Of a DNA stretch of 49,887 nt, positions 5,685-49,887 are shown in pieces. The notes under the pieces are model-generated. The model saw nothing but the letters and a program-made list of their open reading frames with translations. It ran no database searches and was not told where the DNA came from. The stretch comes from Dehalococcoidia bacterium. GTDB taxonomy: Bacteria > Chloroflexota > Dehalococcoidia > GIF9 > AB-539-J10. Position numbers and translations under genes: made by a program. Positions within the stretch are counted from its first letter, which is position 1, and each line of letters opens with the position of its first letter. Where the stretch lies: the NCBI GenBank assembly GCA_003556385.1, contig PWRA01000113.1, positions 1 through 49,887 on the forward strand. Direction: 5' to 3'.

Positions 5685-5702
5685 AGCACACACATTCACT
5701 CC

Positions 5703-30052: not shown

Positions 30053-31507
30053 ATGAAGGACAGCGACGCTAGACCCACAACCAACGATGCGGGTATTCCC
30101 GTGTCAAGCGAGGAGTTTTCCCTTACCGTGGGACCGGATGGCCCCGTCCTGCTTCAAGATCACTATCTTATGGAGCAGATGGCCAACTTCAACCGGGAGA
30201 TGATTCCGGACCGCCAGCCCCATGCCAAGGGCTCCGGGGCCTTCGGACACTTGGAGGTGTCCCGGGACGTCAGCGCGTACACCAGGGCGGCAGTATTCCA
30301 GCCGGGCACCAGGACCGAGGTTCTGGCCCGGTTCTCCACGGTGGCCGGTGAGAGCGGCAGCCCCGACACCTGGCGGGACGTACGCGGCTTCGCGCTCAAG
30401 TTCTACACGAGCGAGGGGAACTACGACATGGTGGGGAATAACACCCCGGTCTTCTTTGTGCGCGACCCGATGAAGTTCCAGCATTTCATCCATTCCCAGA
30501 AGCGCCGGGCGGACAGCGGCCTGCGCGATCATGACATGCAGTGGGACTTCTGGACGCTGTCGCCCGAGTCGGCCCATCAAGTCACCATCCTGATGAGCGA
30601 CCGCGGAGTCCCCAGGAGCTACCGCCACATGAACGGCTACACCAGCCACGCCTACATGTGGGTTAACGCCAAAGGCGAGCGCTTCTGGGTGAAATACCAC
30701 TTTAAGACCGACCAGGGCATCGAAAACCTCACTCAAGAGGAGGCCGACCGGATCGCCGGTGAGGATGCTGACTATCACCGCCGCGATCTGTTTGATGCGA
30801 TCAATCGGGGGGAGTCTCCCAGCTGGACGCTGAAAGTACAGATCATGCCCTTTAAGGAGGCTGAGACATACCGGTTCAACCCCTTTGATCTTACCAAGGT
30901 CTGGTTCCACGCCGACTACCCACTTCACGAGGTGGGCCGGCTGACCCTGGACCGCAACCCCGGCGACTTTCACAGTGAGATCGAGCAGGCCGCGTTCGAG
31001 CCCAACAACCTTGTTCCTGGCATCGGCGCCAGCCCGGACAAGATGCTGCTCGCCCGGCTGGTTTCCTACGCCGACGCCCACCGGGCACGCCTGGGTGTCA
31101 ACTACAAGCAGATTCCGGTCAACCGGCCGAGGACCCCGATACACAGCTACAGCAAGGGCGGTGTGATGCGGATCCAGAATGTCTCTGACCCGGTCTATGC
31201 ACCCAACTCAAAGGGCGGCCCCAAAGCCGACCCGGCGCAGTACCCGGAAGACGCCGTATGGAGTGCCGACGGTGACTTTGTGCGCGCCGCCTACACCAAG
31301 CGCAAGGACGACGACGATTTCGGACAGGCGGGAGCTCTGGTGCGCAGGGTCATGGATGATACCAGGCGTGACCTGCTGGTATCCAATGTGGTAGGGCACC
31401 TGAAGAAGGGCGTTTCCGAGCCCGTGCTGCAGCGCGTTTTTGAGTACTGGCGCAATATCGACAGGGAGACCGGCGATCGCATTGCCAGTGGTATGCGAGC
31501 GAGTTGA
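30053..31507 (+). CDS. katA: monofunctional heme catalase (small-subunit clade), 484 aa
   Basis: [49 protein letters not shown], and the proximal Tyr region RL.SY.DAHR.RLG.NY. Confidence 0.95.
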
Positions 31508-32445: not shown

Positions 32446-33414
32446 ATGGGAAACCGTCTTGTTCACCGAGCATACGACCTTGAGCCGGGGCGCGAGAGCC
32501 TCCTCCGCGAAGCGCTCGCCGGGCTACGTAGGCCGCAAAAGGAGTTGCCCACCAAATACCTCTACGATGAACGTGGCGCAGGCCTGTTCGACCGCATCTG
32601 CAAGCTGGAAGACTATTACATCACCCGGACCGAGGCATCCATCATGGAAGCCAATATCGGCGAGATCGCCAAGTGTCTCGGACGCCTTGTAGCCCTGGTT
32701 GAGTACGGCAGCGGAAACTGCAAGAAGGTGAGACACCTGCTGGACCATCTCGACGATCCTGTAGCCTACATTCCGATCGACATTTCCCGGGAGCAGTTGC
32801 TGCACGTGGCGGAGCAGCTGGCCTCAGATTATCCCGATCTCGAGGTGCAGCCTGTATGCGCTGACTACCTGAGCGTTCTTGATCTGCCCGCATCAAAGCG
32901 CCCCGCCCGGCGCAGATGCGTCTATTTCCCCGGCTCGACGATCGGCAATTTCGAGCCAGCCGCGGCGCAGTTCTTTTTCAAGCACATCAGAGGCGTGTGC
33001 GGCAGGACCGGTGCCCTGCTCATCGGTGTAGACCTGCAAAAAGACCCGGCTGTACTGCACCGCGCCTACAACGACAGAGAGGGTATCACCGCTGCCTTCA
33101 ACCTAAACGTGCTCGAGCGGATGAACCGCGAGCTCGGGTGCGATTTCCAGCCCGCCCGTTTCTACCATTACGCTTTCTACAACCCCGGACAGGGAAGGAT
33201 CGAGATGCATCTCATCAGCCGCCACGCTCAGACAGTCCGCGTGGGCGACGAGGCGATCCCTATTGCTGCCGGAGAGAGCATATGGACCGAGAGTTCATAC
33301 AAGTACACGCTTGACGGATTCGCGCGCCTGGCCGCTGCCGGAGGCTTCAAGACCGAGAGGGTCTGGCTTGACGAGCAACAGTGGTTCAGCGTGCAGTATC
33401 TGGTACCGGACTAG
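32446..33414 (+). CDS. egtD: L-histidine N-alpha-methyltransferase (hercynine synthase, EgtD/EanA family), 322 aa
   Basis: The sequence LPTKYLYDERGAGLFDRICKLEDYYITRTE...VEYGSGNCKK...YIPIDIS...YFPGSTIGNF...LLIGVDLQKD...RAYNDREGITAAFNLNVLERMNREL...GRIEMHL.S...Q.V......I....GE.I.TE.SYKY matches mycobacterial EgtD along its length, as I recall that sequence. Confidence 0.85.
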   Translation: MGNRLVHRAYDLEPGRESLLREALAGLRRPQKELPTKYLYDERGAGLFDRICKLEDYYITRTEASIMEANIGEIAKCLGRLVALVEYGSGNCKKVRHLLDHLDDPVAYIPIDISREQLLHVAEQLASDYPDLEVQPVCADYLSVLDLPASKRPARRRCVYFPGSTIGNFEPAAAQFFFKHIRGVCGRTGALLIGVDLQKDPAVLHRAYNDREGITAAFNLNVLERMNRELGCDFQPARFYHYAFYNPGQGRIEMHLISRHAQTVRVGDEAIPIAAGESIWTESSYKYTLDGFARLAAAGGFKTERVWLDEQQWFSVQYLVPD

Positions 33415-33444: not shown

Positions 33445-36400
33445 CTACTTGCATGGTATCAGCCGCACCGTGTCCTTCTCCTCGAGCACCTGCGCCAGCG
33501 CCGACACAGTCTCCTCTATCTCCTCCTCCGTAGTGTAGCGGCTCAACGAGAACCGTACCGCGCAGTGCGCGTCTTCCTCAGTTCTGCCCATAGCGAGAAG
33601 GACGTGGGTGGGCTCCGGAGAGCCCGACCGGCATGCCGAGCCCGAAGACAGCGAAACGCCCCGCTGGTCGAGCATTATGACAAGCGACTCGCCGCGCAGG
33701 CCGGGGAAGGTCAGGTTGAGCGTGTTGGGCAGCCTGTACTTCGGGTGGCCATTCAGTCGCACCCCGGGCACCAGCCGTCTCACGCCTTCCTCCAGTCTGT
33801 TCCGCAGACCTCGTACGCGATCAGCCTCCGACAGGGCGAAGGCCGCTAGCTCAGCCGCCTTGCCCAGCCCAACCGCGCCGGGGATGTTTTCGGTGCCCGC
33901 CCGTATCCCGCCTTCCTGTTTGCCTCCATGAACAAGCGGCTCCAGATGGATGCCCTTCGCGACGTACAGTGCACCTATTCCCTTGGGCCCATGTAGCTTG
34001 TGCCCCGAAATGCTCAGCATGTCTACCCCTAGTTCCTCAACATCCACGCCTGTCTTGCCGACCGCCTGGATAGCATCGGTGTGGAAAAGCACCCCGCTCT
34101 CGTGACAAACAGCGCTCAACTCTCTGATCGGCAGGATCGTGCCGGTCTCATTATTGGCCATCACAATACTAACCAGGACCGTGTGGGCGTCGAGGGCGGC
34201 CCGGAGCGTGGCAGGGTCAAGCCAGCCGTTGCTGTCTACCTCAAGGTACGTAATGCTGTAGCCCAGTCTTTCCAGAAACCGACAGGTTTCCATCACCGCC
34301 GGGTGCTCCACGGTTGTTGTCACGATGTGTCTGCCCCTATGACGCAGGGCGAAAGCGGCTCCCTTGATGGCCAGGTTATTGGACTCAGAGCCTCCGCCCG
34401 TGAAGACCAGACTCCTCGGTCGGGCGTTGATAAGCGCGGCCACCTGACGGCGCGCATGCTCCAGGGCATCCCTGGCCACGAGACCCGAAGCATGTATGCT
34501 GGACGGATTCCCCGCCTCGACACCAAGGTACGGGATCATGGCGTCGCGCACCGCGTCAGCGACCTGCGTCGTGGCGTTGTTATCAAGATATATGCGCCTC
34601 GCCGGCCTGGTTGGCCCTGCGACCGCGCTCAACGCACACTCCTCCCCTAATGCGGGCCGACTGCCCACTGCGCAGCAGGTCTCGTCGGTACCGGACTCGA
34701 CTCTTTCCACGTCGCACAGCAAAGCCTTGTACACCGGAAAGCCGGAGATCTTGTCGTAGTTACCCAGGTCGGTGAGTTCATTCACATTCCACTTCTGCCA
34801 CGCCTCGGGACCGACAGGCGTTCCACCGCCGAACATGCACTCTACACATCCCCTCATGATGTCCCCGGTCACCCTGGCCCGGAAGGGCACGCTTCCCCTG
34901 GCACTCTTAACCCGAACCAGGTCGCCATTCCGGATACCCCTTGCCGCTGCATCCTCGGAGTTGATCTCTACCAGCGGTTCGGGTGTGTCCCGGACCAATC
35001 CTTCGATACCATGGTGCTGAGACCTGAAATCAGTCTGCGGTCTGGCGCCGGAGTTAAAGACCAGCGGAAACCTCTCTGCCAGCTTCGGACTGCCCAGGGG
35101 GCCTTCGGTTGGCTCGATATACACAGGTAACGGCTCATAGCCGTACCCCTCCAATATCGTAGACCATATCTCGAATTTTCCCGTCGGTGTCTCGAACCCC
35201 ATTCTGCCGTCCTTCCGCAGTCTACCCTTCTCCCACTTCCTGTACTCCAGCATAGGTGTCGAACGCCTTACCCAGCCACCGGCCCGCTTTACGTCCTCCA
35301 GACTGTATCCCGAGTCCTTAAGAACATAGCGGAGCATGTCCTCCTCAGTCTGTGGGAACAGATGGCCGTAGCCCAGGTGCATAGCCAGCTCGGCCATTAT
35401 CAAATAGTCGTTGCGTGCCTCGCCCAACGGCTCGATAACCCTCTCACGCAGCCGGAAAACGGGACCGTAGGTCATATACGAGTCGTTTTCGAACATCGTG
35501 GTGGCCGGCAAAACGATGTCGGCGTAGGCAGCATCGGCCGTGAGCTGGCGATCGATGCAGACCACAAAGTCGAGTCCGGCGAGTGTATCTCTCCACACCG
35601 GCGTCTGCGGCCACGACGTCAGCAGGGAAGCCCCGTGAATGATCAGCCCGCGCGTCCGGTACGGGTGTCCTTTCAGCACAGAATCGACGAGGGCGATGGC
35701 GTGCGACTCTCCCCGATAGTCGCTGTACACTGGAAAATCGCGACGCCCGATGGCCATGTCCAGATTCGGATTCTCCAGGTTGCACGCACGATTGATGGGA
35801 AACTCGCTATCCAGCATGGTAAGCCCGATGCCGCCCGGCACATCGAGATGACCGGCCAGGGCGAACAGGGTCAGAGCCGCCCTGGCAGACTGAACGCCGC
35901 TGTTGGAATATTCCAGGCCGGTGTACATGAGCAGCGCAGCACCCCTGGCCCTGGCGATGCGCCGGGCCAGATCTCTGATCCGGTCCGCCGAAATCCCCGT
36001 TATGGTCTGCACCACGTCAGGCCTGAAGTGCTGAACGTACCTCCTCAGTTCATCAAAGCAATGACACCAGTTCTCGGCGAACTCCTCATCGTAGAGGTCC
36101 TCGTCCACAATGACCTCTATCATGCTCAAGGCCAGAGCGCCATCGGTGCCCGGCCGGATCGGAATCCACTCGCCACCGGTGCGCACCACCGCCTCCGTAC
36201 GGCGTGGGTCGATGAAGACGATGTCCGCACCGCGCCCGGCTGCCATCTCCAATCGCGACATGTCCGCAGGGGGTGAATCGGTGGCCGGGTTAGTGCCCCA
36301 GACCACCACCATGCCGGAGTTCTCGATGTCGGCAAACATGTTCATCTGCATTCTCCCCATGGTCACATGAGGAGCGATCATGTGCAGCGAGACGTAACAC

Positions 36401-36837
36401 AGGGCGCCAACGCCTGTTGTGTTCATAGACCCGAACGGGAACAGCACATTAGAGGCCGAAGACACGGCTACGCCTTTAGGCTGGTACATATCGCACAGCG
36501 ACAGTTCCTGGGCGCCACGACCCGTATAGATGCATACGGCCTCCGGCCCCGACTCTTCTCTGATCTCGAGTATACTATCGGTGATGGTCCTGTACGCCTC
36601 CTGCCAGGAAATACGCTGGAAATCGTACGATCCCCGGGGTCCGACCCGCCTTAGAGGATGCAGAATCCGGTGTCTGGAGTAGACTATCTCCGGTGCATGC
36701 TCTCCCCGCCGACAGATCATACCCAGCGTATGGGTGTCATCGGCCCTTATTTCAACCAGCCTGCCACCCACAAGGCCGACCTCCACCCAGCAACCCGCCG
36801 GACATACGCCACAGAGAGCCTTCCGCCACTCGACCAT
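33445..36837 (-). CDS. fusion protein: N-terminal bis-pterin (Mo/W) oxidoreductase module plus C-terminal class V PLP cysteine desulfurase (NifS/IscS-like). Candidate metallopterin-dependent ergothioneine synthase.
   Basis: ORF 33445..36984 (1179 aa). The start is uncertain and is placed at ATG 36837 (MVEWRKALCGVCPAGC), just before the MopB-type C-x2-C-x3-C...C cluster motif. About 750 aa of MopB-family sequence follow, including a C-terminal pterin-binding barrel (INSEDAAARGIRNGDLVRVKSARG). Then comes RIYLDNNATT...SGHKLHGPKG (PLP Lys)...SSGSAC (persulfide Cys). Confidence 0.75.
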   Translation of the reverse strand: MVEWRKALCGVCPAGCWVEVGLVGGRLVEIRADDTHTLGMICRRGEHAPEIVYSRHRILHPLRRVGPRGSYDFQRISWQEAYRTITDSILEIREESGPEAVCIYTGRGAQELSLCDMYQPKGVAVSSASNVLFPFGSMNTTGVGALCYVSLHMIAPHVTMGRMQMNMFADIENSGMVVVWGTNPATDSPPADMSRLEMAAGRGADIVFIDPRRTEAVVRTGGEWIPIRPGTDGALALSMIEVIVDEDLYDEEFAENWCHCFDELRRYVQHFRPDVVQTITGISADRIRDLARRIARARGAALLMYTGLEYSNSGVQSARAALTLFALAGHLDVPGGIGLTMLDSEFPINRACNLENPNLDMAIGRRDFPVYSDYRGESHAIALVDSVLKGHPYRTRGLIIHGASLLTSWPQTPVWRDTLAGLDFVVCIDRQLTADAAYADIVLPATTMFENDSYMTYGPVFRLRERVIEPLGEARNDYLIMAELAMHLGYGHLFPQTEEDMLRYVLKDSGYSLEDVKRAGGWVRRSTPMLEYRKWEKGRLRKDGRMGFETPTGKFEIWSTILEGYGYEPLPVYIEPTEGPLGSPKLAERFPLVFNSGARPQTDFRSQHHGIEGLVRDTPEPLVEINSEDAAARGIRNGDLVRVKSARGSVPFRARVTGDIMRGCVECMFGGGTPVGPEAWQKWNVNELTDLGNYDKISGFPVYKALLCDVERVESGTDETCCAVGSRPALGEECALSAVAGPTRPARRIYLDNNATTQVADAVRDAMIPYLGVEAGNPSSIHASGLVARDALEHARRQVAALINARPRSLVFTGGGSESNNLAIKGAAFALRHRGRHIVTTTVEHPAVMETCRFLERLGYSITYLEVDSNGWLDPATLRAALDAHTVLVSIVMANNETGTILPIRELSAVCHESGVLFHTDAIQAVGKTGVDVEELGVDMLSISGHKLHGPKGIGALYVAKGIHLEPLVHGGKQEGGIRAGTENIPGAVGLGKAAELAAFALSEADRVRGLRNRLEEGVRRLVPGVRLNGHPKYRLPNTLNLTFPGLRGESLVIMLDQRGVSLSSGSACRSGSPEPTHVLLAMGRTEEDAHCAVRFSLSRYTTEEEIEETVSALAQVLEEKDTVRLIPCK

Positions 36838-37065
36838 TGTATGATTCGGGTCAGAGGCGCCTGGGATTTCCTCCGGAGGTCTGTGCATTCTTCCCATATA
36901 GTAACAGCAAGGGCAGGTCATCCTCAATCTCTTTGGTCGGCACATAGCCGGGGTTCGATGACGGAGAGGAGGGAGCGGGGGCAAGACACAGGCAGGCTAC
37001 ATCGACTATAATGGGATGGCAATGGGCAGCAACCGCCCACCCGGCTGTGCGGAACCTTAAAGAGT

Positions 37066-39158: not shown

Positions 39159-40472
39159 TCAGGGGGACGTCCTGTCGACCGTAAAGAGGTTCACCAGGTC
39201 GACGGTGTCGACAACGTTCAGCTTCCGGAAGAGCAGCGAAAAGCGCTCTTCCAGAATCTGCCTCATGCCCGCCAGTCTATCCTCAGGAATGTTCCACATC
39301 TCCTCTTTGAAGAGACCGAAGCCCTTCTTACGCGTGCTGTACAGAAACTGCTCGTCTGTGTCTCCGGGCTTCTTTTCGTCTGCATACCTTCGGCGGATCT
39401 CTTCATAGATGCGCTCCAGCAGGTCGTTCGGGAAAAAGCCGCCATCATATATCAGGTTCTGGAATCCAGTGGCCAGGTGCACTTCTGCCGTCCCTGCATC
39501 CGGGAACATCTCGAACGCCTCGTCCGGCAAAGTCGAGGCGCCGTGCTGCACGGCCCCCGCCAGCCCGTACTCATCTCGGGCCACCCTTGAGATCTCGCGG
39601 AGCGCCTCGAAATCGATCTCCACCTCGGCCATCGATCCGTCCGGCAGAACCACACCCCCATGCTTCGTCCCGGTCTGAACGCTGATCTTGGAGATGCCGG
39701 ACGTCTCGGACCCCAGATGCCGGAGGTACCCGGACATGAACGCTCTCAGGTCACCCACGGTGCTGTTCCTGCCGCCGACCTCTCCGATCTCACCGCCCAC
39801 CGAGATGGTGACTCCCCCCGGCTCGATGCCGCGAATCAAGCGGGTCATGTCGCCGGTTACCCGGCAGTTTATCTCCTGCTGCTCCTCGAGCGTCTCCCGT
39901 TCCAGGTCGACGAGGGTAGAGGCGTCGACATCGATGTTCAGGAAGCCGGCAAAGACCGCCCCCTTAATCAGGTCACTGACGGCCTTCAACTCCGCCTGTG
40001 AATCCGAGGCATACTTGCCGCTGCTGAACTGAAAATGGTCTCCTTGAAGGAAAACAGGCCCACTGAAACCTTCCCTGACCGCCGCGGCCAGGACGCACGA
40101 GGCATACTCGGCCGGCGACTGGTCGGTATAGCCGATCTCAGAGCGGGCGATTTCAAATATGAAGGCGCCTACCTTGTGCTTCAGGGCGGCCCGGAAGACG
40201 GCCCTTGCCACCTGATAGGTGATACCGCGGATATTTATCGCCGGGACGGTCTTAGAGACGTAGAGCCCGTTGCCGGCAGCGGTGTACAGGCCGTGAGTGC
40301 TCGCCAGACAGATATCCTGCTTGCGCGCAGACTCGCGAATCGTCTTCCGGGCCCTCTCTCTGTCCGACTTCCCGGGAGAAAAGACGGCGCCGTACACAAC
40401 GGCGTCCATATCGCCGGGCGGCACACCCTTCTTCTCGACATCCCCGCCCCGTCTCTCGTCATCATGCTTCAT
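39159..40472 (-). CDS. fba: class II (metal-dependent) fructose/ketose-bisphosphate aldolase family protein, long form, 437 aa
   Basis: ORF 39159..40952 trimmed to ATG 40472 (GGAGGAGGG 5 nt upstream); the upstream 160 codons overlap pfk out of frame. Motifs VFLQGDHF, GGEIGEVGG, VQTGTKHGG and VQHGASTLPDE....F.....AEVHLATGFQN match class II aldolases. Confidence 0.7.
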   Translation of the reverse strand: MKHDDERRGGDVEKKGVPPGDMDAVVYGAVFSPGKSDRERARKTIRESARKQDICLASTHGLYTAAGNGLYVSKTVPAINIRGITYQVARAVFRAALKHKVGAFIFEIARSEIGYTDQSPAEYASCVLAAAVREGFSGPVFLQGDHFQFSSGKYASDSQAELKAVSDLIKGAVFAGFLNIDVDASTLVDLERETLEEQQEINCRVTGDMTRLIRGIEPGGVTISVGGEIGEVGGRNSTVGDLRAFMSGYLRHLGSETSGISKISVQTGTKHGGVVLPDGSMAEVEIDFEALREISRVARDEYGLAGAVQHGASTLPDEAFEMFPDAGTAEVHLATGFQNLIYDGGFFPNDLLERIYEEIRRRYADEKKPGDTDEQFLYSTRKKGFGLFKEEMWNIPEDRLAGMRQILEERFSLLFRKLNVVDTVDLVNLFTVDRTSP

Positions 40473-41592
40473 GCTTTCCCTCCTCCAGCCTGAGTATCGT
40501 CCGCCGTCCGTTATATCTCTCCACGTCATACTGCGTATCGACATCAACAAATCTGGCCCGCCCGATAGCATTTTCAATAGCGCACATAGTGACTCTTCCG
40601 TTGCGGACGCAGACCATTTTGCCGAAGATGCCTGCCGCCACAAGCTCCATCGCAGCGATGCCGAAGTACCTGCCCATTCTCCTATCGTAGGCACAGGGAG
40701 CACCACCCCGCTGAAGGTGGCTGAGGTTGATGCTACGCGTCTCCAGTCCGGTCGAGGCCTCGATCTCCCGGGCCAGAGAATCTCCGACACCTCCCAGGAA
40801 CTTATGCCCAAAGGCATCGACGCCTTCCTGTCTGGTAAACTCGGTGCCGCCTGCCGGCTTTGCGCCCTCAGAAACCACGATGATCTCGTATCTGGCTCCC
40901 TCTTCTCTTCCCTCGACAAGAAGTTCATTGACTCTGTCCGGAGAAAAATCATGTTCCGGGATGAGGATTATAAAGGCACCGCTCGCTTCGCCCCCCTCCA
41001 AGGCCAACCAGCCGCCATGCCTGCCCATGGTCTCCACAACGAATATTCTCTTGTGCGAACCCGCCGTGGTACGCAGGCGGTCGATCTCTTCAGTGATGAC
41101 GCTAACTGCCGTCTCGAATCCGAGCGTATAATCGGTCTCGGGCAGGTCCTTGTCGATGGTCTTGGGTATGGCGACCACCGGCACGCCCTCACGGTCCAAC
41201 CTGTGGGCGACTCCCAGCGTGTCATCGCCGCCGATCGCTATCAGTGCGTCCAGTCGCAGCTTCTCGATGTTGGCCAACACCCTCCGGGACTGGTCGTTCT
41301 TCGGATCGTAGGGATTGGTCCGCGACGTACCTAGCATGCTGCCACCGTACCTATCCCACGTCCGGACGACGGCCTGGTCCAGCGGCATGACGTACTCTTC
41401 CATGCCTGCTGCGCCGGGCTTGACTTCAATGAGTCCCTTCCATCCGTCCTTGATGCCCACCGGCGTATATCGGGTCATCCTTTCTCGCTGCAGCCGATCA
41501 TCAAGCGCCGTCTTCACTATCCATTTAATGGCGGGATTAATGCCGGCGCAGTCCCCTCCCCCGGTCAGGATACCTATCCTGTTCTCTTTCAT
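40462..41592 (-). CDS. pfp: 6-phosphofructokinase, predicted PPi-dependent type, 376 aa
   Basis: RIGILTGGGDCAGINPAI. The IGGDDTLG (Asp rather than Gly) and IPKTIDKDL (Lys rather than Gly) positions are the known discriminators of PPi- versus ATP-dependent PFKs. Start placed at ATG 41592 (GAGGAGG 9 nt upstream). The stop overlaps the fba start by 11 nt. Confidence 0.8.
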   Translation of the reverse strand: MKENRIGILTGGGDCAGINPAIKWIVKTALDDRLQRERMTRYTPVGIKDGWKGLIEVKPGAAGMEEYVMPLDQAVVRTWDRYGGSMLGTSRTNPYDPKNDQSRRVLANIEKLRLDALIAIGGDDTLGVAHRLDREGVPVVAIPKTIDKDLPETDYTLGFETAVSVITEEIDRLRTTAGSHKRIFVVETMGRHGGWLALEGGEASGAFIILIPEHDFSPDRVNELLVEGREEGARYEIIVVSEGAKPAGGTEFTRQEGVDAFGHKFLGGVGDSLAREIEASTGLETRSINLSHLQRGGAPCAYDRRMGRYFGIAAMELVAAGIFGKMVCVRNGRVTMCAIENAIGRARFVDVDTQYDVERYNGRRTILRLEEGKHEA

Positions 41593-41660
41593 GTCCATCA
41601 ACCTCCTCAGTTCCCGTAACGAACGTCGGTCGTGATCTCCTGCACACTCCGCCTATACCG

Positions 41661-41953: not shown

Positions 41954-42325
41954 CTAGCGAGCCGCAAGCTCTTCTATCTTCCTCGCCATCTCATCCGGCC
42001 TGAAAGGTTTACTAACAAAGCTGTCAGCGCCCAGGCGTATCGCCCTGTCACGGTTTCCCGGGCTTGCGCTGAAGGCGATCACAGGCAACTGACTGAAAGC
42101 CCGCAGCTGCTTCAACACCTCGCATCCATCCATTTCGGGCATGATGATATCGAGCAGCATGACATCCGGGTTGGCCGTCTTGACAAGATCGAGCGCCTCG
42201 TCGCCAGAGGCAGCCGTAAGGACCTCAAATCCGCGAAGTCTCAGGTCTATCTCCACAAACCTGAGCACCTTCACGTGATCATCGACCACCAGCACGCATG
42301 TCTTTTTTGTTACCTCATTCATCAT
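41954..42325 (-). CDS. stand-alone response-regulator receiver domain (CheY-like), 123 aa
   Basis: VLVVDDH...DVMLLDIIMPEMDG......PVIAFSA......GADSFVSKPF. No output domain. Confidence 0.85.
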   Translation of the reverse strand: MMNEVTKKTCVLVVDDHVKVLRFVEIDLRLRGFEVLTAASGDEALDLVKTANPDVMLLDIIMPEMDGCEVLKQLRAFSQLPVIAFSASPGNRDRAIRLGADSFVSKPFRPDEMARKIEELAAR

Positions 42326-42735: not shown

Positions 42736-43410
42736 CTATCGGCCAGACCTGTTCAGTGACGCCTGTTCCAGCACCCAGGAGCGCCACTCTTCCACCCCCT
42801 GGCCGGTCTTGCACGACAGCTGCAGAACCAGGGCCTCGGAGTTCAGTCCCCGGACGGCCTCGCGAAAGGCGGCGAGGTCGAAGTCAAGGTAAGGAAGAAG
42901 ATCTATCTTGTTCACTATCACTACATCCGCGTCGACAAAAATCAGGGGGTATTTCGCCGTCTTATCGTCACCCTCTGGCAGGCTGGAAATCACGACTCGC
43001 CTGTGTTCACCCAGGGCGAACTCGGAGGGGCAGATGAGATTGCCTATGTTCTCGATCAGGACCAGGTCTACCTCGTCCAGAGGCAGCTCCTTTAGAGCCG
43101 ACTCAATCATGGCAGCCGTCAAGGAGCAACTCTCCGGCATGTTCCGCGTATTTATCTGGACTACTGCACGTGCCTCGTCCTGCACCTTTTCGGCATCTAC
43201 AGTGGATGCGACATCGCCTTCGATAACGGCGACGTTGAGCCTATCTCTCAGGCCGGCAATCGTCTGCAGAATAAGACTCGTCTTGCCGGCACCGGGACCG
43301 GACATGACATTGATGCCAAGGATTCCGTGCTTTTCCAGCAGTTCCCGATTCCGCCTGGCTATGGCCTCATTGGCTTCCAATACGTTCTGTATGACTTCTA
43401 TCTTCTTCAT
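42736..43410 (-). CDS. hypB: hydrogenase nickel-insertion GTPase HypB, 224 aa
   Basis: GPGAGKTSL P-loop, IENIGNLICP, and NK.DL. The start overlaps the hypA stop (ATGA). Confidence 0.9.
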   Translation of the reverse strand: MKKIEVIQNVLEANEAIARRNRELLEKHGILGINVMSGPGAGKTSLILQTIAGLRDRLNVAVIEGDVASTVDAEKVQDEARAVVQINTRNMPESCSLTAAMIESALKELPLDEVDLVLIENIGNLICPSEFALGEHRRVVISSLPEGDDKTAKYPLIFVDADVVIVNKIDLLPYLDFDLAAFREAVRGLNSEALVLQLSCKTGQGVEEWRSWVLEQASLNRSGR

Positions 43411-43748
43411 TCTACTTCTATGCTCTCAACATAGAGCTCGCGGCCCCTGGCTATCTCCACGCTCTGGCTCAAACACTCAGGACAGGACCACATGGTGTCC
43501 TGAGGCATAAAAAGAGCAGCGCAGTCGCGACACCGCAGCTGCGCCGGCACAACCTCGAAGTGGAGTACAGCCTGCTGAGCTATCGTCTCCTCCTTAAAAG
43601 AATCAAAATAGAACTGGATGCAGTCCGGGACGAATCCCGACAGCTCGCCTATGACCAGGTTGATCTGTGTTATCCTGGTGGCCTGCGCTTCACCGGCCTT
43701 GGCCAAGGCAATATCGACGATGTTCTCGGTTATTCCCAGTTCATGCAT
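43407..43748 (-). CDS. hypA: hydrogenase nickel-insertion metallochaperone HypA, 113 aa
   Basis: The track start is TTG, so the CDS is trimmed to the canonical MHELGI N-terminus. Zinc site CRDC...CPEC. Confidence 0.85.
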   Translation of the reverse strand: MHELGITENIVDIALAKAGEAQATRITQINLVIGELSGFVPDCIQFYFDSFKEETIAQQAVLHFEVVPAQLRCRDCAALFMPQDTMWSCPECLSQSVEIARGRELYVESIEVE

Positions 43749-43922
43749 ATGGTGAACCAAGCCAAGGCAAGGTATTCTAGACTACTTCGCGCCTCCACTT
43801 CAAGAGCCGGGCACACAACACGGGAATCAACCACCATGGCCGCCCCCACATCAACTTAGGGGCGAGCCCCAGAGTGGAGCATTCACAGCACGCTGTGCCG
43901 CCATCGCAAGGCTGATAATCGC

Positions 43923-44523: not shown

Positions 44524-44552
44524 AATATAGAGTCAAAGGCATCGGTTGTCAA
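44524..44552 (-). promoter_or_regulatory. consensus sigma70 promoter TTGACA-17nt-TATATT, internal to the hydrogenase cluster
   Basis: Minus strand: TTGACA (44552-44547), a 17-nt spacer, TATATT (44529-44524). It lies between the ferredoxin-subunit stop and the nifU-like ATG. Confidence 0.55.
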
Positions 44553-44565
44553 GTGTAACGAGACA

Positions 44566-44904
44566 TCAGACCGGCACCTCTATGGTCTCCACTCCCTTGG
44601 ACAGGGCCGGCTTCGTATAGCGCCTGTCCTGGCCTATCGCTCTCGGAAGACATATCTCCACGCATGTCGCGCAGTAAATGCACTTGAAAGGGTCGTACGT
44701 TATCTGTCGGGACTCCAGGGTCACCTCTATAGCCAACGAGGGACAGACCCTGGCACAATCGCCGCAGAGATCGCACCTATCGGCATCAAAATCGATCCTG
44801 CCCTTGTACCCCGCAAAGGGCTCCCTCACATCATCGAATGGATACCGCCGCGTAACGGGTCGAGATAACAGGTTCCTCAAGATCGTCGGAAGCATCCACG
44901 GCAT
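44566..44904 (-). CDS. 2x[4Fe-4S] ferredoxin-type hydrogenase subunit (EchF/NuoI-like), 112 aa
   Basis: CDLCGDCARVCP and CIYCATCVEICLP. Located immediately downstream of the large subunit. Confidence 0.8.
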   Translation of the reverse strand: MPWMLPTILRNLLSRPVTRRYPFDDVREPFAGYKGRIDFDADRCDLCGDCARVCPSLAIEVTLESRQITYDPFKCIYCATCVEICLPRAIGQDRRYTKPALSKGVETIEVPV

Positions 44905-44909
44905 TTACA

Positions 44910-45989
44910 TCACCTCTCAGTACAGGAGATACAGGGGTCTATCGACAGGGCAATCACCGGTGCGTCGGCCAGTTCACAACCGGGCATCATGGCCAGTAGA
45001 GGAGGTATATTCGCGAAAGTGGGCGTCCTTATCTTCAGTCGCTCCAGATGGTTCGTTCCGTTGCCCTTCAGGTAGTAGATGACTTCACCTCTGGGCTGCT
45101 CGCACCTGGACACCGTCTCCCCCACAGGATAACCGTCCACTCTAATCAGTATCCTCCCATCGGGCATCGCCGTCAGCGACCTTCTCATAAGATCTATAGA
45201 CTGATACAGTTCTCTGGTTCTCACCACGACGCGGGCATGACTATCGCACCCCGTCTCCACTACCGGCTCGAAGCCGAGCTCACCATAAGCCGCGTAGCCT
45301 GTCTGCCTCATATCAACGGCCACACCACTCGCCCGGGCCACGTGACCGACTGCCCCCAGCACCTCGGCCTGGTCCTTCGACAATACCCCCTTCCCTGCAG
45401 TCCGTTGCCTGATGGTCGGATCGTGCAGGAACACACCATGAATGGAGCTATCCACCAGTTGCCTCAGAGCGATAAGCCTCTTCTCCACTTCCCTCACCAT
45501 CTCTTCATCCATATCCCTTCTCACTCCACCGATGGTGCAGGAGGCCTGAATTATCCTGTGCCCGGCCGTCATCTCAGAGATATCGAGGACCATCTCTCTG
45601 GCGCGCCAGCACTGCATGAAGAGGCTCTCGAAGCCCATGGCGTCGGCCAACAGCCCCAACCAAAGTAGATGACTATGCGCCCTGGAGAGTTCACTCCAGA
45701 ATACACGCAGAAACCGGGCCCTGGCGGGAACCTCAACTCCTATCAGGCTTTCAATCCCCTGGCAGTAAGTCAGGCTGTGGATGAAGCTACAGATTCCGCA
45801 TATTCTGTCCATCAGGTTGATGTTTTGACGGAAGGTATTGAGCTCAGCGGCCTTTTCGATCCCGCGGTGGACGTAGCCGATGACGGGCATCACACCGATC
45901 ACCTTCTCATCTTCCAGCTCCAGCTTAAGGTGAATGGGCTCCGGCAACACGGGGTGTTGAGGGCCGAACGGGATCACGGTTCGCGCCAT
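44910..45989 (-). CDS. group 4 (energy-converting, Ech/Mbh-type) [NiFe]-hydrogenase large subunit, NuoD-like, 359 aa
   Basis: N-terminal FGPQHP, Ni-binding RICGICSFIHS and C-terminal DPCISCTER motifs. Size equals EchE-type subunits. Confidence 0.9.
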   Translation of the reverse strand: MARTVIPFGPQHPVLPEPIHLKLELEDEKVIGVMPVIGYVHRGIEKAAELNTFRQNINLMDRICGICSFIHSLTYCQGIESLIGVEVPARARFLRVFWSELSRAHSHLLWLGLLADAMGFESLFMQCWRAREMVLDISEMTAGHRIIQASCTIGGVRRDMDEEMVREVEKRLIALRQLVDSSIHGVFLHDPTIRQRTAGKGVLSKDQAEVLGAVGHVARASGVAVDMRQTGYAAYGELGFEPVVETGCDSHARVVVRTRELYQSIDLMRRSLTAMPDGRILIRVDGYPVGETVSRCEQPRGEVIYYLKGNGTNHLERLKIRTPTFANIPPLLAMMPGCELADAPVIALSIDPCISCTER

Positions 45990-46035
45990 TGCATCACACT
46001 CCTCGGTCTGGTCCGATCATTCTCGATTATCATAC

Positions 46036-47823
46036 TCATTCCTCCAGGTCGCATCTCCAGCACCGCCGGCCCTCAGCCCTGGCCTCCTCTTCGCTCAGTC
46101 CGAGCTCGACCTCTCCGAATCCTCGCAATCTCTCCCCGACGGGCAGACTCGGCATCTCGACCCGGATGCTCTCATTGGTCCACCTATCGATGAAAGTATC
46201 CCGAGCAGTGAGGTCTCTCACCTCGATCTCATCTACCGCCAGGATTCCTGTTCCGCCCAGATACTTATCGATCGATGACGCCGCCTGTTTCCCGGTCCTC
46301 ACGGCCTCAACCACCGAAGCGGGCCCTAGTACTGCATCACCCGCGGCGAAGACGGCATCGCGCGACGTAGCCATAGTCTCTGGATGTGCCAGGATAACGT
46401 TTCCCCGTCCCAATCTGATGCCGAACTCCTGCGAGAACTCGGGGTGTTGCCCGATCGCAGCGATAACGGCACTTACATCCACAGTGAACTCGCTGTCCTC
46501 AACGGGTTCCGGTCGGGGCCTCCCGCTAGCGTCGGGTGGTCCCAGGCGCATACAAATGCTTTCCAGTTGGATTGTATCATCTCTGGTCAATACTCTTGTC
46601 GGCGCTGCCAGGAAACGGATTTTCACCACTTCCTTGAGCGCCTCCTCGATCTCACAGGCATCGGCCGGCATTTCGGCCCGTGTGCGCCGGTAGTACATCA
46701 TAACATCGCTAGCTCCCAGGCGAAGCGCGCTACGCGCGGCATCGATGGCGGCGTTGCCACCGCCGATAATCGCGACCGCTTCTCCCGGCTCGACCCTGCC
46801 ACCAAGATTCACGTCTCTAAGGAAATCTATGCAATCCATTACTCTATGATGATCCTCTCCCTCGACCCCCATCTTAATGCCTACGTGAGCGCCCGTCGCC
46901 ACGAGCACCGCCTGATACCCTTCCTCAAAGAGAGTATCCAAAGATGCTATCCTGTTAGAGGTAAGTATGTCGACGCCCATCCTCCTGATCATGTCTATCT
47001 CGCGATCGAGCACCGCTCTGGGGAGCCGGTAAGACGGGATCCCCACCCGCATCATTCCTCCGGCCTCGGGCAATGCCTCATATATGGTGACTCCGTGCCC
47101 CATCCTGGCAAGGTAGTAGGCCGCGGTGAGCCCGGCCGGCCCTGAGCCGATTATCGCTACACGCTTCCCGGTTTGCCTGGAAGGCACTCCCTCGTCATAG
47201 GCGGCATGATCGTAGGCGAACCTCTTCAGCATCCTGATCGCAATCGGGGTGTCCTGCCTTGCCTGGCGGCAGTTAGCCTCGCAGGGAGCAAAACATACCC
47301 GGCCCAGGATGCCCGGGAAGGGGAGCGCCTGCCTTATCACCGCAAGCGCCTCGGCAACCCTTCCGTCGCCGACAAGCCGGACATAGCGGGGTATGTCGAT
47401 CCCGGCGGGACAAGCGTCGCCGCACCTCACGGGAAGACGCTCCGGTGGTGTAGGCTCATAGGGAGCGGGTTTCAAAAGCTCGCTCTCAGGACTATCCTTG
47501 CTGCGCAGGAACCTCTTATGAAAGTCGAGCGCCAGGCCCTCCATCTCGATACCGAAGTGGTCGCGCATCTCGTTCTCACTCAGGGCAGCGCAGAGGTAGA
47601 CGCCAGATATGCTGGGCAGCGCTTCCCCTTTCCCAATCCGCACCTTGACGTGGCCGAGTGGCGCAGGGCTGTCCTGTAACTCGAAATGGTAGATGACTTC
47701 AAACCCATCTCCCAGGTCAAGACAGGTGATGGCGCCGAACCTGGCTCCGACACCCAACAGCTTCCGCACTGCAGCTACCAGCCCACCCATGTCTACCAGA
47801 ATCTCATTTTCCATGTGCGCCAA
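46036..47823 (-). CDS. fusion protein: NuoC/EchD-like hydrogenase subunit (~110 aa) plus GltD/NfnB/SudA-like NAD(P)H-binding FAD/Fe-S oxidoreductase (~480 aa)
   Basis: The N-terminus ...FEVIYHF.....P.....V.....EALPSISGVY..A...E.E..D.FGI..EG is NuoC-like. Then come RCGDACPAGIDIP.Y......G....A......N.FP...GRVC..PCE..C (GltD-type Fe-S motifs), VAIIGSGPAGLTAA (FAD) and VAIIGGGNAAIDAA (NAD(P)H). Confidence 0.8.
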   Translation of the reverse strand: MAHMENEILVDMGGLVAAVRKLLGVGARFGAITCLDLGDGFEVIYHFELQDSPAPLGHVKVRIGKGEALPSISGVYLCAALSENEMRDHFGIEMEGLALDFHKRFLRSKDSPESELLKPAPYEPTPPERLPVRCGDACPAGIDIPRYVRLVGDGRVAEALAVIRQALPFPGILGRVCFAPCEANCRQARQDTPIAIRMLKRFAYDHAAYDEGVPSRQTGKRVAIIGSGPAGLTAAYYLARMGHGVTIYEALPEAGGMMRVGIPSYRLPRAVLDREIDMIRRMGVDILTSNRIASLDTLFEEGYQAVLVATGAHVGIKMGVEGEDHHRVMDCIDFLRDVNLGGRVEPGEAVAIIGGGNAAIDAARSALRLGASDVMMYYRRTRAEMPADACEIEEALKEVVKIRFLAAPTRVLTRDDTIQLESICMRLGPPDASGRPRPEPVEDSEFTVDVSAVIAAIGQHPEFSQEFGIRLGRGNVILAHPETMATSRDAVFAAGDAVLGPASVVEAVRTGKQAASSIDKYLGGTGILAVDEIEVRDLTARDTFIDRWTNESIRVEMPSLPVGERLRGFGEVELGLSEEEARAEGRRCWRCDLEE

Positions 47824-48232
47824 TGCTCTCCAATGCCAACACTACGCCGTCGATGATCGCCTCGGGCCTGGCGGCGCAACCGGGGATGTAGACATCCACC
47901 GGTATGACCCTGTCTATGCCGCCCAGGACGTTAGGGCAATTGTGAAACACGCCGCCCGTGCACCCACAGGTCCCCACCACTATGACCCGTCTAGGCTCGG
48001 GCATCTGTTCGTACAGATTGCTCAGCACCCTCTGATTGCGGTGGTTGGCGGGGCCGGTCACCAGGAGTACATCAGCGTGTTTCGGATTACCCATATTTAC
48101 GATACCGAACCGCTCTACATCGTAGAAAGGGGTCAGCGCGGCCAGTATCTCAATGTCGCACCCATTGCAGCTACCGCAATCGAAGTGCAACAGCCAGGGC
48201 GATTTAATCCTCGCTCTATTCATTATTCCCAT
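47804..48232 (-). CDS. group 4 [NiFe]-hydrogenase small subunit (EchC/NuoB-like), 142 aa
   Basis: CGSCNGCDIE, ...VVGTCGCTGG... and PGCAARPE cluster ligands. Overlaps the downstream fusion gene by 20 nt. Confidence 0.9.
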   Translation of the reverse strand: MGIMNRARIKSPWLLHFDCGSCNGCDIEILAALTPFYDVERFGIVNMGNPKHADVLLVTGPANHRNQRVLSNLYEQMPEPRRVIVVGTCGCTGGVFHNCPNVLGGIDRVIPVDVYIPGCAARPEAIIDGVVLALESIGAHGK

Positions 48233-48334
48233 TTCGTTACATCCAAAGCCCTTCAGCGCTGTGTGTCAGTGCGAGCCAAGTCAAGCAATCCGGTGGGAGT
48301 GCCACGGCCCGCAATGACGTTAACGCGAAACGCT

Positions 48335-49204
48335 TTACATCCATCCTAAGTGTATCAATACTATGTTCAACGCAATCAAACCTATGCCCGCGCCCCAGGC
48401 GAATCTCAGCATCGAGGACCAGGTCAGGCGAGCGCTTATGTTGTCCACCAGCAGTATGACAAGCCAGCCCAGTAGAGCTATTATGATGGATAGCCACCAC
48501 AGGCTGCCCGCCGCCCAGAACAACCCAAGCACCGACAGCACCAGGACCATCTCGTACCAGTGCCCTAGCTCAATCAACGCCAGGTACGGTCCCGAGTACT
48601 CGGTCACCACACCCCCAACCAGCTCCTGATGTGCATGCTCCGAGCTAGAGACGTCAAAGGGCGACTTTCTCATTACCATAGCGAGCGCGATAAGAAGGGC
48701 GATGAAAGTCAGCCACAACCCGGGCAGTAGAGGCTCTCCGTGTTCCAGGATAGCGGTAATGGAGAAGCCGTCAACCTTCAACGCAATGGGCACTGCCGCC
48801 AGTAACAGGATCGGTTCATAGGCCAGAAATCGCAGCAGTTCACGATGTCCGCCCAGCTGGCTATAGGGAGACTTCACGCTCAACGCGCCTAGAGGAAGAC
48901 ACAGACTGCCGAAAAAGAGTATGAACAGAAGCATCAACAGATCTTGCCTCAAGGCAAAGAAAACCACCGCGGTAACAGTCAGGCCGAGAAACGCATAGGC
49001 AAACACAGTCTGTGTTCGACCGGCGACCATGGGGTTCTTGCCGAACAGCTTGATGACATCGTAGAATGGCTGGAGAAGCGGCGGTCCCCATCTACCCTGC
49101 ATGCGGGCGGTCAGCCTGCGGTCGATGCCTTTCAGCCACCCTCCGATCAGAGGAGCTGCTATCACAGCAATGAGCGCGGTTCCGATCAGCCAGCCTGTGT
49201 TCAT
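48335..49204 (-). CDS. membrane subunit EchB/HycD/NuoH-like, 289 aa
   Basis: Polytopic. The R....MQGR.GP....QPF.D..KL motif is typical of NuoH/HycD. Confidence 0.85.
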   Translation of the reverse strand: MNTGWLIGTALIAVIAAPLIGGWLKGIDRRLTARMQGRWGPPLLQPFYDVIKLFGKNPMVAGRTQTVFAYAFLGLTVTAVVFFALRQDLLMLLFILFFGSLCLPLGALSVKSPYSQLGGHRELLRFLAYEPILLLAAVPIALKVDGFSITAILEHGEPLLPGLWLTFIALLIALAMVMRKSPFDVSSSEHAHQELVGGVVTEYSGPYLALIELGHWYEMVLVLSVLGLFWAAGSLWWLSIIIALLGWLVILLVDNISARLTWSSMLRFAWGAGIGLIALNIVLIHLGWM

Positions 49205-49887
49205 ATCACCACCAGCGCAATCAGGATCGAAAGCAGAACCACGCCGGCGGGTACGATCAACCGCTCCAGCCTCTGCTCTCCCAAGACGCCTTCCATGTAG
49301 AATCCGCCAGTCTTGAGTTCGGTCTTTTCGTCGCCCACGGCAATGAACTCATCCGAACCCATTTCCACGTTCTCCCCACACATGTACGCTGCACGGCCCG
49401 TCTCAGGCCTGAGCCTCACGGTGAGCAAGGGGAGCACAAGCGCCAGAGCCACTCCTATGAAGACCGGCCAACCCGCGAACACCCCGCCGGCGGTCCTCAA
49501 GAACCACCTCTCCGTGATAAAAGCCAGAGCCGGATCATAGCCAGCATCCACCAGAATCGGCCCGACGATAGCGTCGAATACGGGCGCAATCAACAGGCTG
49601 AACAGCACAGCCAGACCAACCAACACCAGAAGGATACCGTGATACTGCGCGACAAACGGTTCGCGGCTCGCCCGAGTTGGCGCGGGACGCTCGCACAGAA
49701 TCCGTCCGATCCACTTGGCCCAGAAGACCGTACTGGCGCCTATGCTCAGGATGAGAAGCACCAGCACGAGCGCCGACCATGTACCAATGGCCGGCGCCGC
49801 CTGAATCGCCGCCCACTTGCTGATAAGGATGCCAAAGGGAGCCACCAGCAGGGAAAGCATGGCCGTTACGGTAATCCCGGCCAGCAC
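49201..49887 (-). CDS. antiporter-like membrane subunit (EchA/HycC/NuoL-like), C-terminal part; the 5' end lies beyond the right edge
   Basis: Hydrophobic ORF open to the window edge; the track's M is only the first in-window GTG. Its stop overlaps the EchB-like start by 4 nt, and its position in the operon fits EchA. Confidence 0.65.
   Translation of the reverse strand: MLAGITVTAMLSLLVAPFGILISKWAAIQAAPAIGTWSALVLVLLILSIGASTVFWAKWIGRILCERPAPTRASREPFVAQYHGILLVLVGLAVLFSLLIAPVFDAIVGPILVDAGYDPALAFITERWFLRTAGGVFAGWPVFIGVALALVLPLLTVRLRPETGRAAYMCGENVEMGSDEFIAVGDEKTELKTGGFYMEGVLGEQRLERLIVPAGVVLLSILIALVVI

Follow-up and report, generated by a model that had tools for sequence, protein, structure and literature searches.

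A 49,887-nucleotide stretch of DNA from a Dehalococcoidia bacterium (contig PWRA01000113.1 of assembly GCA_003556385.1; referred to as the window, at its full length) encodes an Ech-type group 4 [NiFe]-hydrogenase whose NuoC-like subunit, EchD, continues in one frame into a GltD-family oxidoreductase module. The operon is a minus-strand run (49887-44566) of six head-to-tail open reading frames (ORFs) in the order echABCDEF, as assigned from the ORF list together with Pfam and NCBIfam models (Table 1). The best explanation, which we hold with a probability of about 0.6, is that these genes encode a six-subunit, membrane-bound and ion-translocating Ech-type hydrogenase in which EchD has gained, by gene fusion, a complete module for the oxidation of reduced nicotinamide adenine dinucleotide phosphate (NADPH), i.e. 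an NADPH:acceptor oxidoreductase. Such an enzyme would probably link hydrogen metabolism and the membrane ion gradient to NADPH and not just to ferredoxin, and it would most likely act as a reversible NADP(H):H+ oxidoreductase with coupled translocation of ions. A preliminary description of the window, made from the sequence alone, had proposed an Ech-type group 4 operon with an in-frame NuoC-like::GltD/NfnB-like fusion. Its anatomy is right wherever it could be tested, and all six of its minus-strand ORFs lie where it had placed them.

The hydrogenase core carries the catalytic motifs of a [NiFe] enzyme. In EchE the two NiFe motifs are RICGICSFIH at amino acid (aa) 62 and DPCISCTER at aa 351-359, where the chain stops without a C-terminal extension. 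The nearest solved relatives of EchE are MbhL (2.6e-73) and HycE. Homologs that share 62-76% identity with it bear the label ‘ech hydrogenase subunit E’, and canonical six-gene Ech operons with a free EchD (114-139 aa) encode an EchE of 64-65% identity. Models of group 4 and of complex I match the large subunit, whereas those of group 3 do not. Membership in complex I, Mbx or Ehr, where NuoD lacks the NiFe cysteines, does not agree with the window, in which 4/4 cysteines are present in EchE and hyp genes lie nearby. A motif check of EchC found all its cluster motifs (CGSCNGC, GTCGCTGG and PGC), and EchF also matches the NuoI and hydrogenase-4 subunit H models. The EchA fragment matches hydrogenase-4 subunit D weakly and is 68% identical (tblastn) to a full 686-aa Proton_antipo_M protein in a Dehalococcoidia metagenome-assembled genome (MAG; L001). 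The membrane arm expected of Ech, i.e. a NuoH-like subunit with one NuoL-like subunit and no Mrp module, is present in the complete relatives, EchA of the window being partial. Among seven related fused-type operons that were checked, the core motifs (NiFe, EchC cluster cysteines and EchF diclusters) are intact in six, the EchE of L083 failing the strict N-terminal pattern. A neighbour-joining tree of concatenated EchB, EchC, EchE and EchF from 10 operons, which is star-like, without an outgroup and poorly resolved, does not separate fused from canonical operons (0/200 bootstraps), which places the fused type inside the ordinary Ech radiation. The operon is a real, conserved Ech-type group 4 [NiFe]-hydrogenase and, by the identity of EchE and the labels of its homologs, is probably HydDB group 4e-like.

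The fusion protein joins a whole EchD to a whole oxidoreductase module. Pfam places Complex1_30kDa at aa 29-98, Fer4_20 at aa 133-208 and Pyr_redox_2 at aa 221-511 of the 595-aa ORF (46036-47823). The length of 595 aa given in the preliminary description is correct for an ORF that opens at TTG 47823, but database copies begin at ATG 47814 and comprise 592 aa, the numbering used from here on. In this numbering EchD extends to about aa 115, and aa 131 is the first of the cluster cysteines. The junction exists as described, but its position is ~47425-47470 rather than 47480-47520. The EchD scaffold is complete within the fusion, as the first 115 residues can be aligned from one end to the other, at 48% identity, to a separately encoded EchD of 117 aa from a canonical Ech operon (L088). 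A single-chain AlphaFold2 (AF2) model of the fusion has a mean predicted local distance difference test score (pLDDT) of 88.5 and a predicted template modelling score of 0.78; in the linker region the mean pLDDT falls to about 47-52 for residues 101-120 and is <50 for residues 111-117.

Beyond the linker, the module contains the ligand sets of two [4Fe-4S] clusters, made up of CxxxCP, CxxxCxxxC, a lysine and a C-terminal RCxxC. The C-terminal cysteine pair is the one that stands N-terminally in ordinary GltD, i.e. the module is circularly permuted. By alignment, GSGPAG marks the site for flavin adenine dinucleotide (FAD), and GGGNAAID together with YRRTR (YYRRTR) marks the NADPH site. The motifs RCGDACPAG, GRVCFAPCEANC, GSGPAGL and GGGNAAIDAA, which had been noticed earlier, all lie within the fusion ORF. 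An alignment of 56 homologs, extending down to 50% identity, shows that C131, C135, C174, C178, C182, C585, C588, K197, GSGPxG, GGGN..D and YRR are invariant. By homology and motifs, the added module is a complete GltD-family unit for NADPH, FAD and two [4Fe-4S] clusters.

The fusion is a genuine gene and is under selection. No frame other than that of the fusion is open across the junction, and an independent assembly (L092, Logan SRR490150) carries the fusion gene at 99.66% identity with 6 substitutions, 0 gaps and the same junction peptide; collinearity between this assembly and the window extends over 5.9 kb, in which the two are 99.6% identical. Among 5.8 billion proteins searched, >110 protein clusters matched at 49-71% identity, nearly all of ~592 aa. 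All full-length clusters of fusion homologs carry PF00329, PF14691 and PF07992, and the junction is collinear in homolog alignments down to 49% identity. The NuoC::GltD fusion for which the preliminary description had suggested a search is accordingly found in >110 clusters and several operons. An exact-sequence look-up of the window protein gave no match, whereas the 99%-identical P0001 did match. In a library of 1.84 billion representatives, 7 proteins (E <= 1e-30) span the EchD/Fe-S junction and the other matches cover one half only. Since the junction is conserved yet spanned by only seven representatives, the fusion is a real but narrow innovation. Two further apparent fusions, L009 and L053 (matches from residue 58 or 42), proved on relaxed tblastn to have neither an EchD part nor hydrogenase genes, and are therefore ordinary paralogs.

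A misassembly or frameshift that wrongly joined echD to a separate gltD-like gene has virtually no chance of accounting for these observations. It is ruled out by the gap-free independent assembly with its identical junction, by the single open frame, and by a junction that is conserved in hundreds of independent collinear sequences and spanned by the seven library representatives. What speaks for such an artefact is that the homologous gene is called in two pieces, of 131 and 251 aa, in a Dehalococcoides mccartyi MAG (L087, GCA_002431625.1). This is the sole split case and probably reflects a frameshift or a sequencing or assembly error; no adjacent pair of split echD and gltD genes was found among 80 genome loci.

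The six-gene operon with the gene order EchA-EchB-EchC-[EchD::GltD]-EchE-EchF is also present in the Dehalococcoidia MAG L001 and in a Bathyarchaeota MAG (L032). The same order is found in an uncultured lineage at 49% identity (L083), in a biogas-fermenter metagenome (L084, L085), and in L081 and L082, which represent a subfamily in which a receiver domain has been added at the N-terminus. The complete operons (L001, L032, L081, L083) have one antiporter-like gene of 603-686 aa with unrelated genes upstream, and no Mrp genes were found in the complete related operons; L084 has the same gene order with EchA cut by the contig end. The receiver-bearing fusions are 723 aa long (L081 8001-10172, L082 1037-3208; proteins P0086-P0110), and the N-terminal receiver suggests that this hydrogenase subunit may be under phosphorylation control. 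A stand-alone receiver gene in the window (41954-42325) was considered as a counterpart of the fused receiver and set aside, as the similarity is generic, at just 31%, and is not evidence.

The relatives of the added module indicate which chemistry it may perform. Its best matches by both sequence and fold are the NADPH domain of Nfn-ABC of C. saccharolyticus (9bov_A), StnC of Sporomusa ovata (8oh5_C) and NfnABC of T. sibiricus (9n5u_A), with sequence E-values of 5e-110 to 4e-99 and Foldseek E-values of 1e-50 to 1e-53. NfnL/NfnB, Xfn, GltD and dihydropyrimidine dehydrogenase follow. Foldseek superposes the AF2 model on NADP(H)-bound NfnI (5jca_L) with a root-mean-square deviation of 1.9 Å over 428 columns. 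The module aligns residue for residue with 9bov_A and 8oh5_C through RCWRC (RCLEC in both), and K197 of the fusion aligns with K170 of StnC, which is the lysine ligand of the FAD-proximal cluster (PMC10482914). In StnC, FAD, NADPH and two [4Fe-4S] clusters are bound in this domain, whose FAD does not bifurcate but supplies a linear chain of Fe-S clusters (PMC10482914). NADPH is also used by Nfn-Bfu of T. sibiricus (PMC9304861). That the hydrogenase is wired to NAD(P)(H), as had been proposed earlier, is supported as the best explanation by the cofactors of these nearest solved homologs and by the ligands invariant in the 56 sequences, and the module is probably coupled electronically to the hydrogenase core.

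In other Dehalococcoidia, the nearest non-fused paralogs are encoded in Bfu/Fdh-type clusters and carry the module attached to a NuoG-like or NuoF-like domain. In this respect the module resembles a portable NADPH plug. One such protein in a member of the Dehalococcoidales (L003 6309-9392, 1027 aa) joins a NuoF-like flavin mononucleotide subunit to the permuted GltD module and adjoins NuoE-like and FdhA-like genes. In L006, a 729-aa NuoG-N-terminal::GltD protein stands beside a NuoF-like gene, and a formate-dehydrogenase-like subunit is present as two in-line ORFs of 353 and 542 aa (4558-5619 and 5632-7260); the break between them may be an in-frame TGA selenocysteine codon.

In the proposed mechanism, NADPH would deliver a hydride onto FAD, which would pass single electrons to the proximal [4Fe-4S] cluster (three cysteines and a lysine) and from there to the distal [4Fe-4S] cluster. 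We take the distal cluster to be ligated by the first cysteine after the linker and the C-terminal cysteine pair, as in the homologous dihydropyrimidine dehydrogenase and GltD, and for this reason the electron exit would lie next to the EchD anchor. The anchor and the linker of ~15 residues would keep the distal cluster against the peripheral arm, and electrons would run on to the two EchF clusters, the EchC cluster and the [NiFe] site in EchE, where protons would be reduced to H2. This redox step would be coupled to ion movement via EchA and EchB, and at high H2 the enzyme would run in reverse and make NADPH from H2. We infer four elements of this scheme, namely electron transfer from the module to EchF, the use of NADPH rather than NADH, the coupling to ions and the direction.

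In another arrangement, the module would be a tethered ferredoxin:NADP+ oxidoreductase beside the ferredoxin-binding face of Ech, sharing the ferredoxin pool and routing it to H2 or NADPH but not feeding the hydrogenase chain. Stand-alone GltD/NfnB-like proteins with FAD and two [4Fe-4S] clusters are active ferredoxin:NADP+ oxidoreductases (PMC12221290), and the linker is disordered in the AF2 model. Beyond the EchD fold, however, the linker measures ~15 residues, which favours fixed docking, and direct wiring is indicated both by the strict retention of the module in the operon and by the docking of BfuA on the same scaffold in D. mccartyi, so that we consider a separate oxidoreductase distinctly unlikely.

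The energetics of direct wiring to NADPH were calculated from standard potentials, with E’(NADPH) of ~-320 to -370 mV and E(H+/H2) of ~-296 mV at 10 Pa H2. NADPH-driven H2 evolution would yield ~-5 to -14 kJ/mol at 10 Pa H2 and ~-10 to -20 kJ/mol at 1 Pa, and the reverse reaction at 1 bar H2 ~-9 to -18 kJ/mol, with the cost of moving one ion against 150 mV being ~14.5 kJ/mol. Because the driving force is small, the enzyme would work near equilibrium and reversibly, would translocate at most about one ion per H2, and would have its direction set by the partial pressure of H2 and the NADPH/NADP+ ratio.

A shortened form of the fusion occurs in Dehalococcoides mccartyi, for which a nine-gene (nine-subunit) membrane-bound bifurcating complex, ‘Mbh-Bfu’, with a flavin site ‘of unknown function’ has been predicted (Schut 2022, PMC9304861). 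The locus in L086 encodes EchA, EchB, EchC, a NuoE-like protein, a NuoF-like protein, a Fer2/Fer4 protein, a 461-aa EchD::GltD-like protein, EchE and EchF, and its EchE is 68% identical to that of the window. By alignment, the D. mccartyi fusion (L086 6615-8000; L087 6746-8000) keeps EchD, all cluster ligands (seven cysteines), the FAD motif and the RCWRCDLEE end, whereas its NAD(P)H-binding subdomain, which in the window protein spans ~aa 314-446, has been lost entirely. The same deletion is seen in P0270, a 460-aa representative of another lineage. From this alignment, the published ‘flavin site of unknown function’ is the EchD::GltD fusion minus its NADPH subdomain, and the comparison explains a published puzzle of Mbh-Bfu (PMC9304861).

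The D. mccartyi form, which keeps the remainder of the module without the NADPH subdomain, also bears on whether the module could be a structural or regulatory appendage, i.e. a sensor of NADPH/NADP+ or a stabiliser of the peripheral arm that carries no catalytic electron flux. The N-terminal receiver domain of one subfamily hints at regulation, and Schut et al. left the flavin site without a function (PMC9304861). The invariance of the cluster ligands and of the FAD, NADPH and YRR motifs in 56 sequences is nevertheless hard to explain without turnover, and makes such a role very improbable.

The preliminary description had extended its proposal to a confurcating or bifurcating enzyme. In such a dual-donor hydrogenase, ferredoxin (through EchF) and NADPH (through the fused module) would jointly drive H2 formation, or H2 would reduce both in reverse, with or without an ion gradient. 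Both [4Fe-4S] motifs of EchF are kept, as in ferredoxin-dependent Ech, and the GltD fold houses the bifurcating FAD of NfnAB (fold matches 5jca_L and 4ylf_B). In the D. mccartyi relative the same scaffold is paired with BfuABC, a bifurcating module (PMC9304861), and NADPH-linked group 4b complexes are proposed to bifurcate in a survey of 2026 (PMC13582414). However, StnC, which of the characterised modules is the closest, no longer bifurcates and serves as a linear wire from NADPH to Fe-S (PMC10482914), and the fusion offers one Fe-S exit path with neither an NfnA-like [2Fe-2S]/FAD partner nor BfuBC in the six-gene operons examined. The BfuBC core (Complex1_51K, 2Fe-2S_thioredx) was found neither between echC and the fusion gene of the window, where the check reaches only as far as echA, nor in the flanks of L001, L032, L081, L083, L084 and L092; it was seen only in D. 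mccartyi L086. An NfnAB-type partner (a DHODB_Fe-S_bind or NAD_binding_1 gene) was likewise absent from the six-gene operons and seen only beside the non-fused paralog in L006. The earlier extension therefore finds no support; flavin-based bifurcation is unlikely, and so is joint use of the two donors. We are equally doubtful of a three-partner enzyme that would connect H2/H+, NADP+/NADPH and ferredoxin with an ion gradient, as a respiratory-type hydrogenase confurcating or bifurcating without Bfu or NfnA, and that would be an evolutionary precursor of Mbh-Bfu. The three kinds of operon suggest an evolutionary series from Ech, through Ech with the NADPH plug, to Ech with the Bfu module.

Several observations weigh against an NADPH-wired, ion-translocating Ech as preferred here. 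The small driving force between NADPH and H2 makes ion pumping marginal. EchF keeps both of its clusters, and ferredoxin could therefore remain the main partner. The core tree (0/200 bootstraps) gives no independent sign that the core has adapted to a new donor. The preference for NADPH over NADH is read from the YRR motif and the homologs only. The loss of the NADPH subdomain in D. mccartyi, with retention of the rest, means that the module can serve a role independent of NADPH. Finally, all named carriers of the fusion are uncultured MAGs.

Table 1. Position of the hydrogenase operon, the parts of the fusion protein and the adjoining genes in the window.
Feature	Position	Strand	Basis or remark
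EchA-like antiporter-type membrane subunit, C-terminal 228 aa	49201-49887	-	Cut by window end
EchB, NuoH-like membrane subunit, 289 aa	48335-49204	-	Pfam NADHdh, E 3.6e-41
EchC, NuoB-like small subunit, one [4Fe-4S], 142 aa	47804-48232	-	Oxidored_q6, E 2.3e-31
EchD::GltD-like fusion, 592 aa from ATG 47814	46036-47814	-	Complex1_30kDa, Fer4_20, Pyr_redox_2
EchD (NuoC-like) domain of fusion, aa 1-115	47470-47814	-	Complex1_30kDa match
Pro-rich linker of fusion, aa 116-130	47425-47469	-	Low pLDDT; stand-alone EchD ends exactly there
Fe-S domain of fusion, aa 131-205	47200-47424	-	Fer4_20, E 1.7e-20; C131, C135, C174, C178, C182, K197
FAD and NAD(P)H double-Rossmann region of fusion, aa 218-508	46291-47163	-	Pyr_redox_2, E 5.6e-27
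NAD(P)H-binding subdomain of fusion, ~aa 314-446	46477-46875	-	Segment deleted in D. mccartyi homolog, by alignment
C-terminal extension of fusion, aa 509-592	46039-46290	-	Ends in invariant F-x-EVE-x-G...RCWRCD motif
EchE, [NiFe] catalytic large subunit, 359 aa	44910-45989	-	Complex1_49kDa and NiFeSe_Hases
EchF, NuoI-like 2x[4Fe-4S] subunit, 112 aa	44566-44904	-	Fer4 families; two CxxCxxCxxxC motifs
NifU-like Fe-S scaffold protein, 72 aa	44244-44462	-	NifU, E 9.8e-30
hypA, nickel-insertion maturation	43407-43760	-	HypA, E 8.6e-33
hypB, nickel-insertion maturation	42736-43410	-	cobW/HypB, E 5.7e-16

The operon is followed on the same strand by the NifU-like gene, a zinc-ribbon gene, hypA and hypB. 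The NifU-like gene lies directly 3’ of echF, also in the L092 assembly, and probably has an accessory role. A strong sigma-70-like site (44524-44552, minus strand; TTGACA, 17 nt, TATATT; 11/12 matches) is located between the echF stop and the NifU-like gene, and given this site the maturation and accessory genes may have their own promoter.

Elsewhere the window encodes an aldehyde:ferredoxin oxidoreductase (5703-7559), an iron alcohol dehydrogenase and FrhB-like proteins (two FrhB/FdhB-like genes, 1034-2185 and 2819-3931), which fit a fermentative anaerobe. Amid these anaerobe-style genes are a catalase and an EgtD-like histidine methyltransferase of the ergothioneine type (30053-31507 and 32446-33414), a combination that hints at exposure to oxygen. 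A single 1179-aa ORF (33445-36984, minus strand) combines a molybdopterin oxidoreductase (Fe4S4, Molybdopterin and Molydop_binding, aa 52-754) with a domain resembling class-V aminotransferases and cysteine desulfurases (aa 798-1157); this unusual combination may reflect either a genuine fusion or an overlooked stop codon. A 597-aa ORF with a class-II aldolase domain at aa 235-503 (39159-40952) overlaps the phosphofructokinase gene (40462-41601), both on the minus strand, by ~490 bases, and the true aldolase start is therefore probably well downstream of the listed ATG.

Energy-converting hydrogenases are usually taken to be ferredoxin-only, and metabolic models of uncultured anaerobes assume so wherever ‘Ech’ is seen. 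Dehalococcoidia and Bathyarchaeota are among the most abundant lineages of sediments and aquifers. If the hydrogenase of the window is wired to NADPH as proposed, the anabolic NADPH pool would be tied directly to H2 and the membrane potential, and the redox balancing, H2 thresholds and ATP yields predicted for both lineages would change. It would then be the first NADPH-dependent member of group 4 and the first NADPH-linked energy-converting hydrogenase. If the three-partner enzyme were true instead, subsurface Dehalococcoidia and Bathyarchaeota could conserve energy from the oxidation of NADPH with protons as the terminal acceptor. The compact six-gene operon is tractable for heterologous expression.

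The operon can be compared with several known systems. Canonical Ech (HydDB group 4e; e.g. Methanosarcina barkeri and Thermoanaerobacter kivui) has the same six genes in the same order with a single antiporter-like subunit, and its large subunit, like that of the window, has ~359 aa and ends at DPCxxCxxR without a C-terminal extension. Canonical EchD has 114-139 aa and the enzyme uses ferredoxin only, whereas EchD of the window is ~475 residues longer and carries FAD, an NADPH site and two extra [4Fe-4S] clusters, as read from its motifs. Mbh-Bfu of D. mccartyi, from the same class Dehalococcoidia, has a homologous Ech core with the fusion in the same position; it has three extra genes, BfuCBA (NuoE-like, NuoF-like and Fer2/Fer4), placed before the fusion, whereas in the window operon Bfu genes are absent and the NADPH site is complete. 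The modules of StnC, Nfn-ABC and Nfn-BfuA share with the fusion the circular permutation, the lysine ligand and the FAD and NADPH motifs. In these enzymes, however, the module is embedded in a NuoG/Fdh-like subunit of ~950-1180 aa that belongs to a soluble bifurcating transhydrogenase, whereas in the fusion it is joined to EchD of a membrane hydrogenase and lacks the N-terminal [2Fe-2S] and downstream NuoG-like domains.

GltD-like flavoproteins have been reported in Mbx-like operons of Thermotoga and some proteobacteria (Degli Esposti 2015, PMC4758237). These complexes share with the window the presence, in one operon, of a complex-I-like membrane module and a GltD-family NAD(P)H flavoprotein. 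By the description in PMC4758237, they have vestigial NiFe cysteines, a Mrp-type membrane arm and a flavoprotein that replaces NuoI, whereas the window has an intact NiFe site, an intact NuoI-like EchF and a flavoprotein joined to EchD in one chain. Group 3b hydrogenases (P. furiosus SHI) and group 4b hydrogenases with SHI-beta/gamma (PMC13582414) resemble the window enzyme in its proposed overall chemistry between H2 and NADP+/NADPH through Fe-S clusters and a flavin, but the architecture of SHI-gamma is unrelated, not being a GltD fused to EchD, and group 3b is soluble. The subunit composition had struck the preliminary description as unfamiliar. This is borne out for the six-gene form with a complete NADPH site, of which no description was found in open-access full text, and less so for its parts, as the truncated relative (PMC9304861) and the Mbx-like GltD (PMC4758237) were already known. 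Formate dehydrogenase and CO dehydrogenase are known input modules on group 4 hydrogenases. Further added electron-input modules are present in the HdrB-linked group 4 complexes (PMC9723716), the SHI-beta/gamma-linked group 4b complexes (PMC13582414), the Mbx-like operons with GltD-like proteins (PMC4758237) and Mbh-Bfu (PMC9304861). The six-gene EchD::GltD form is a new variant within this known theme of added input modules, not a new category.

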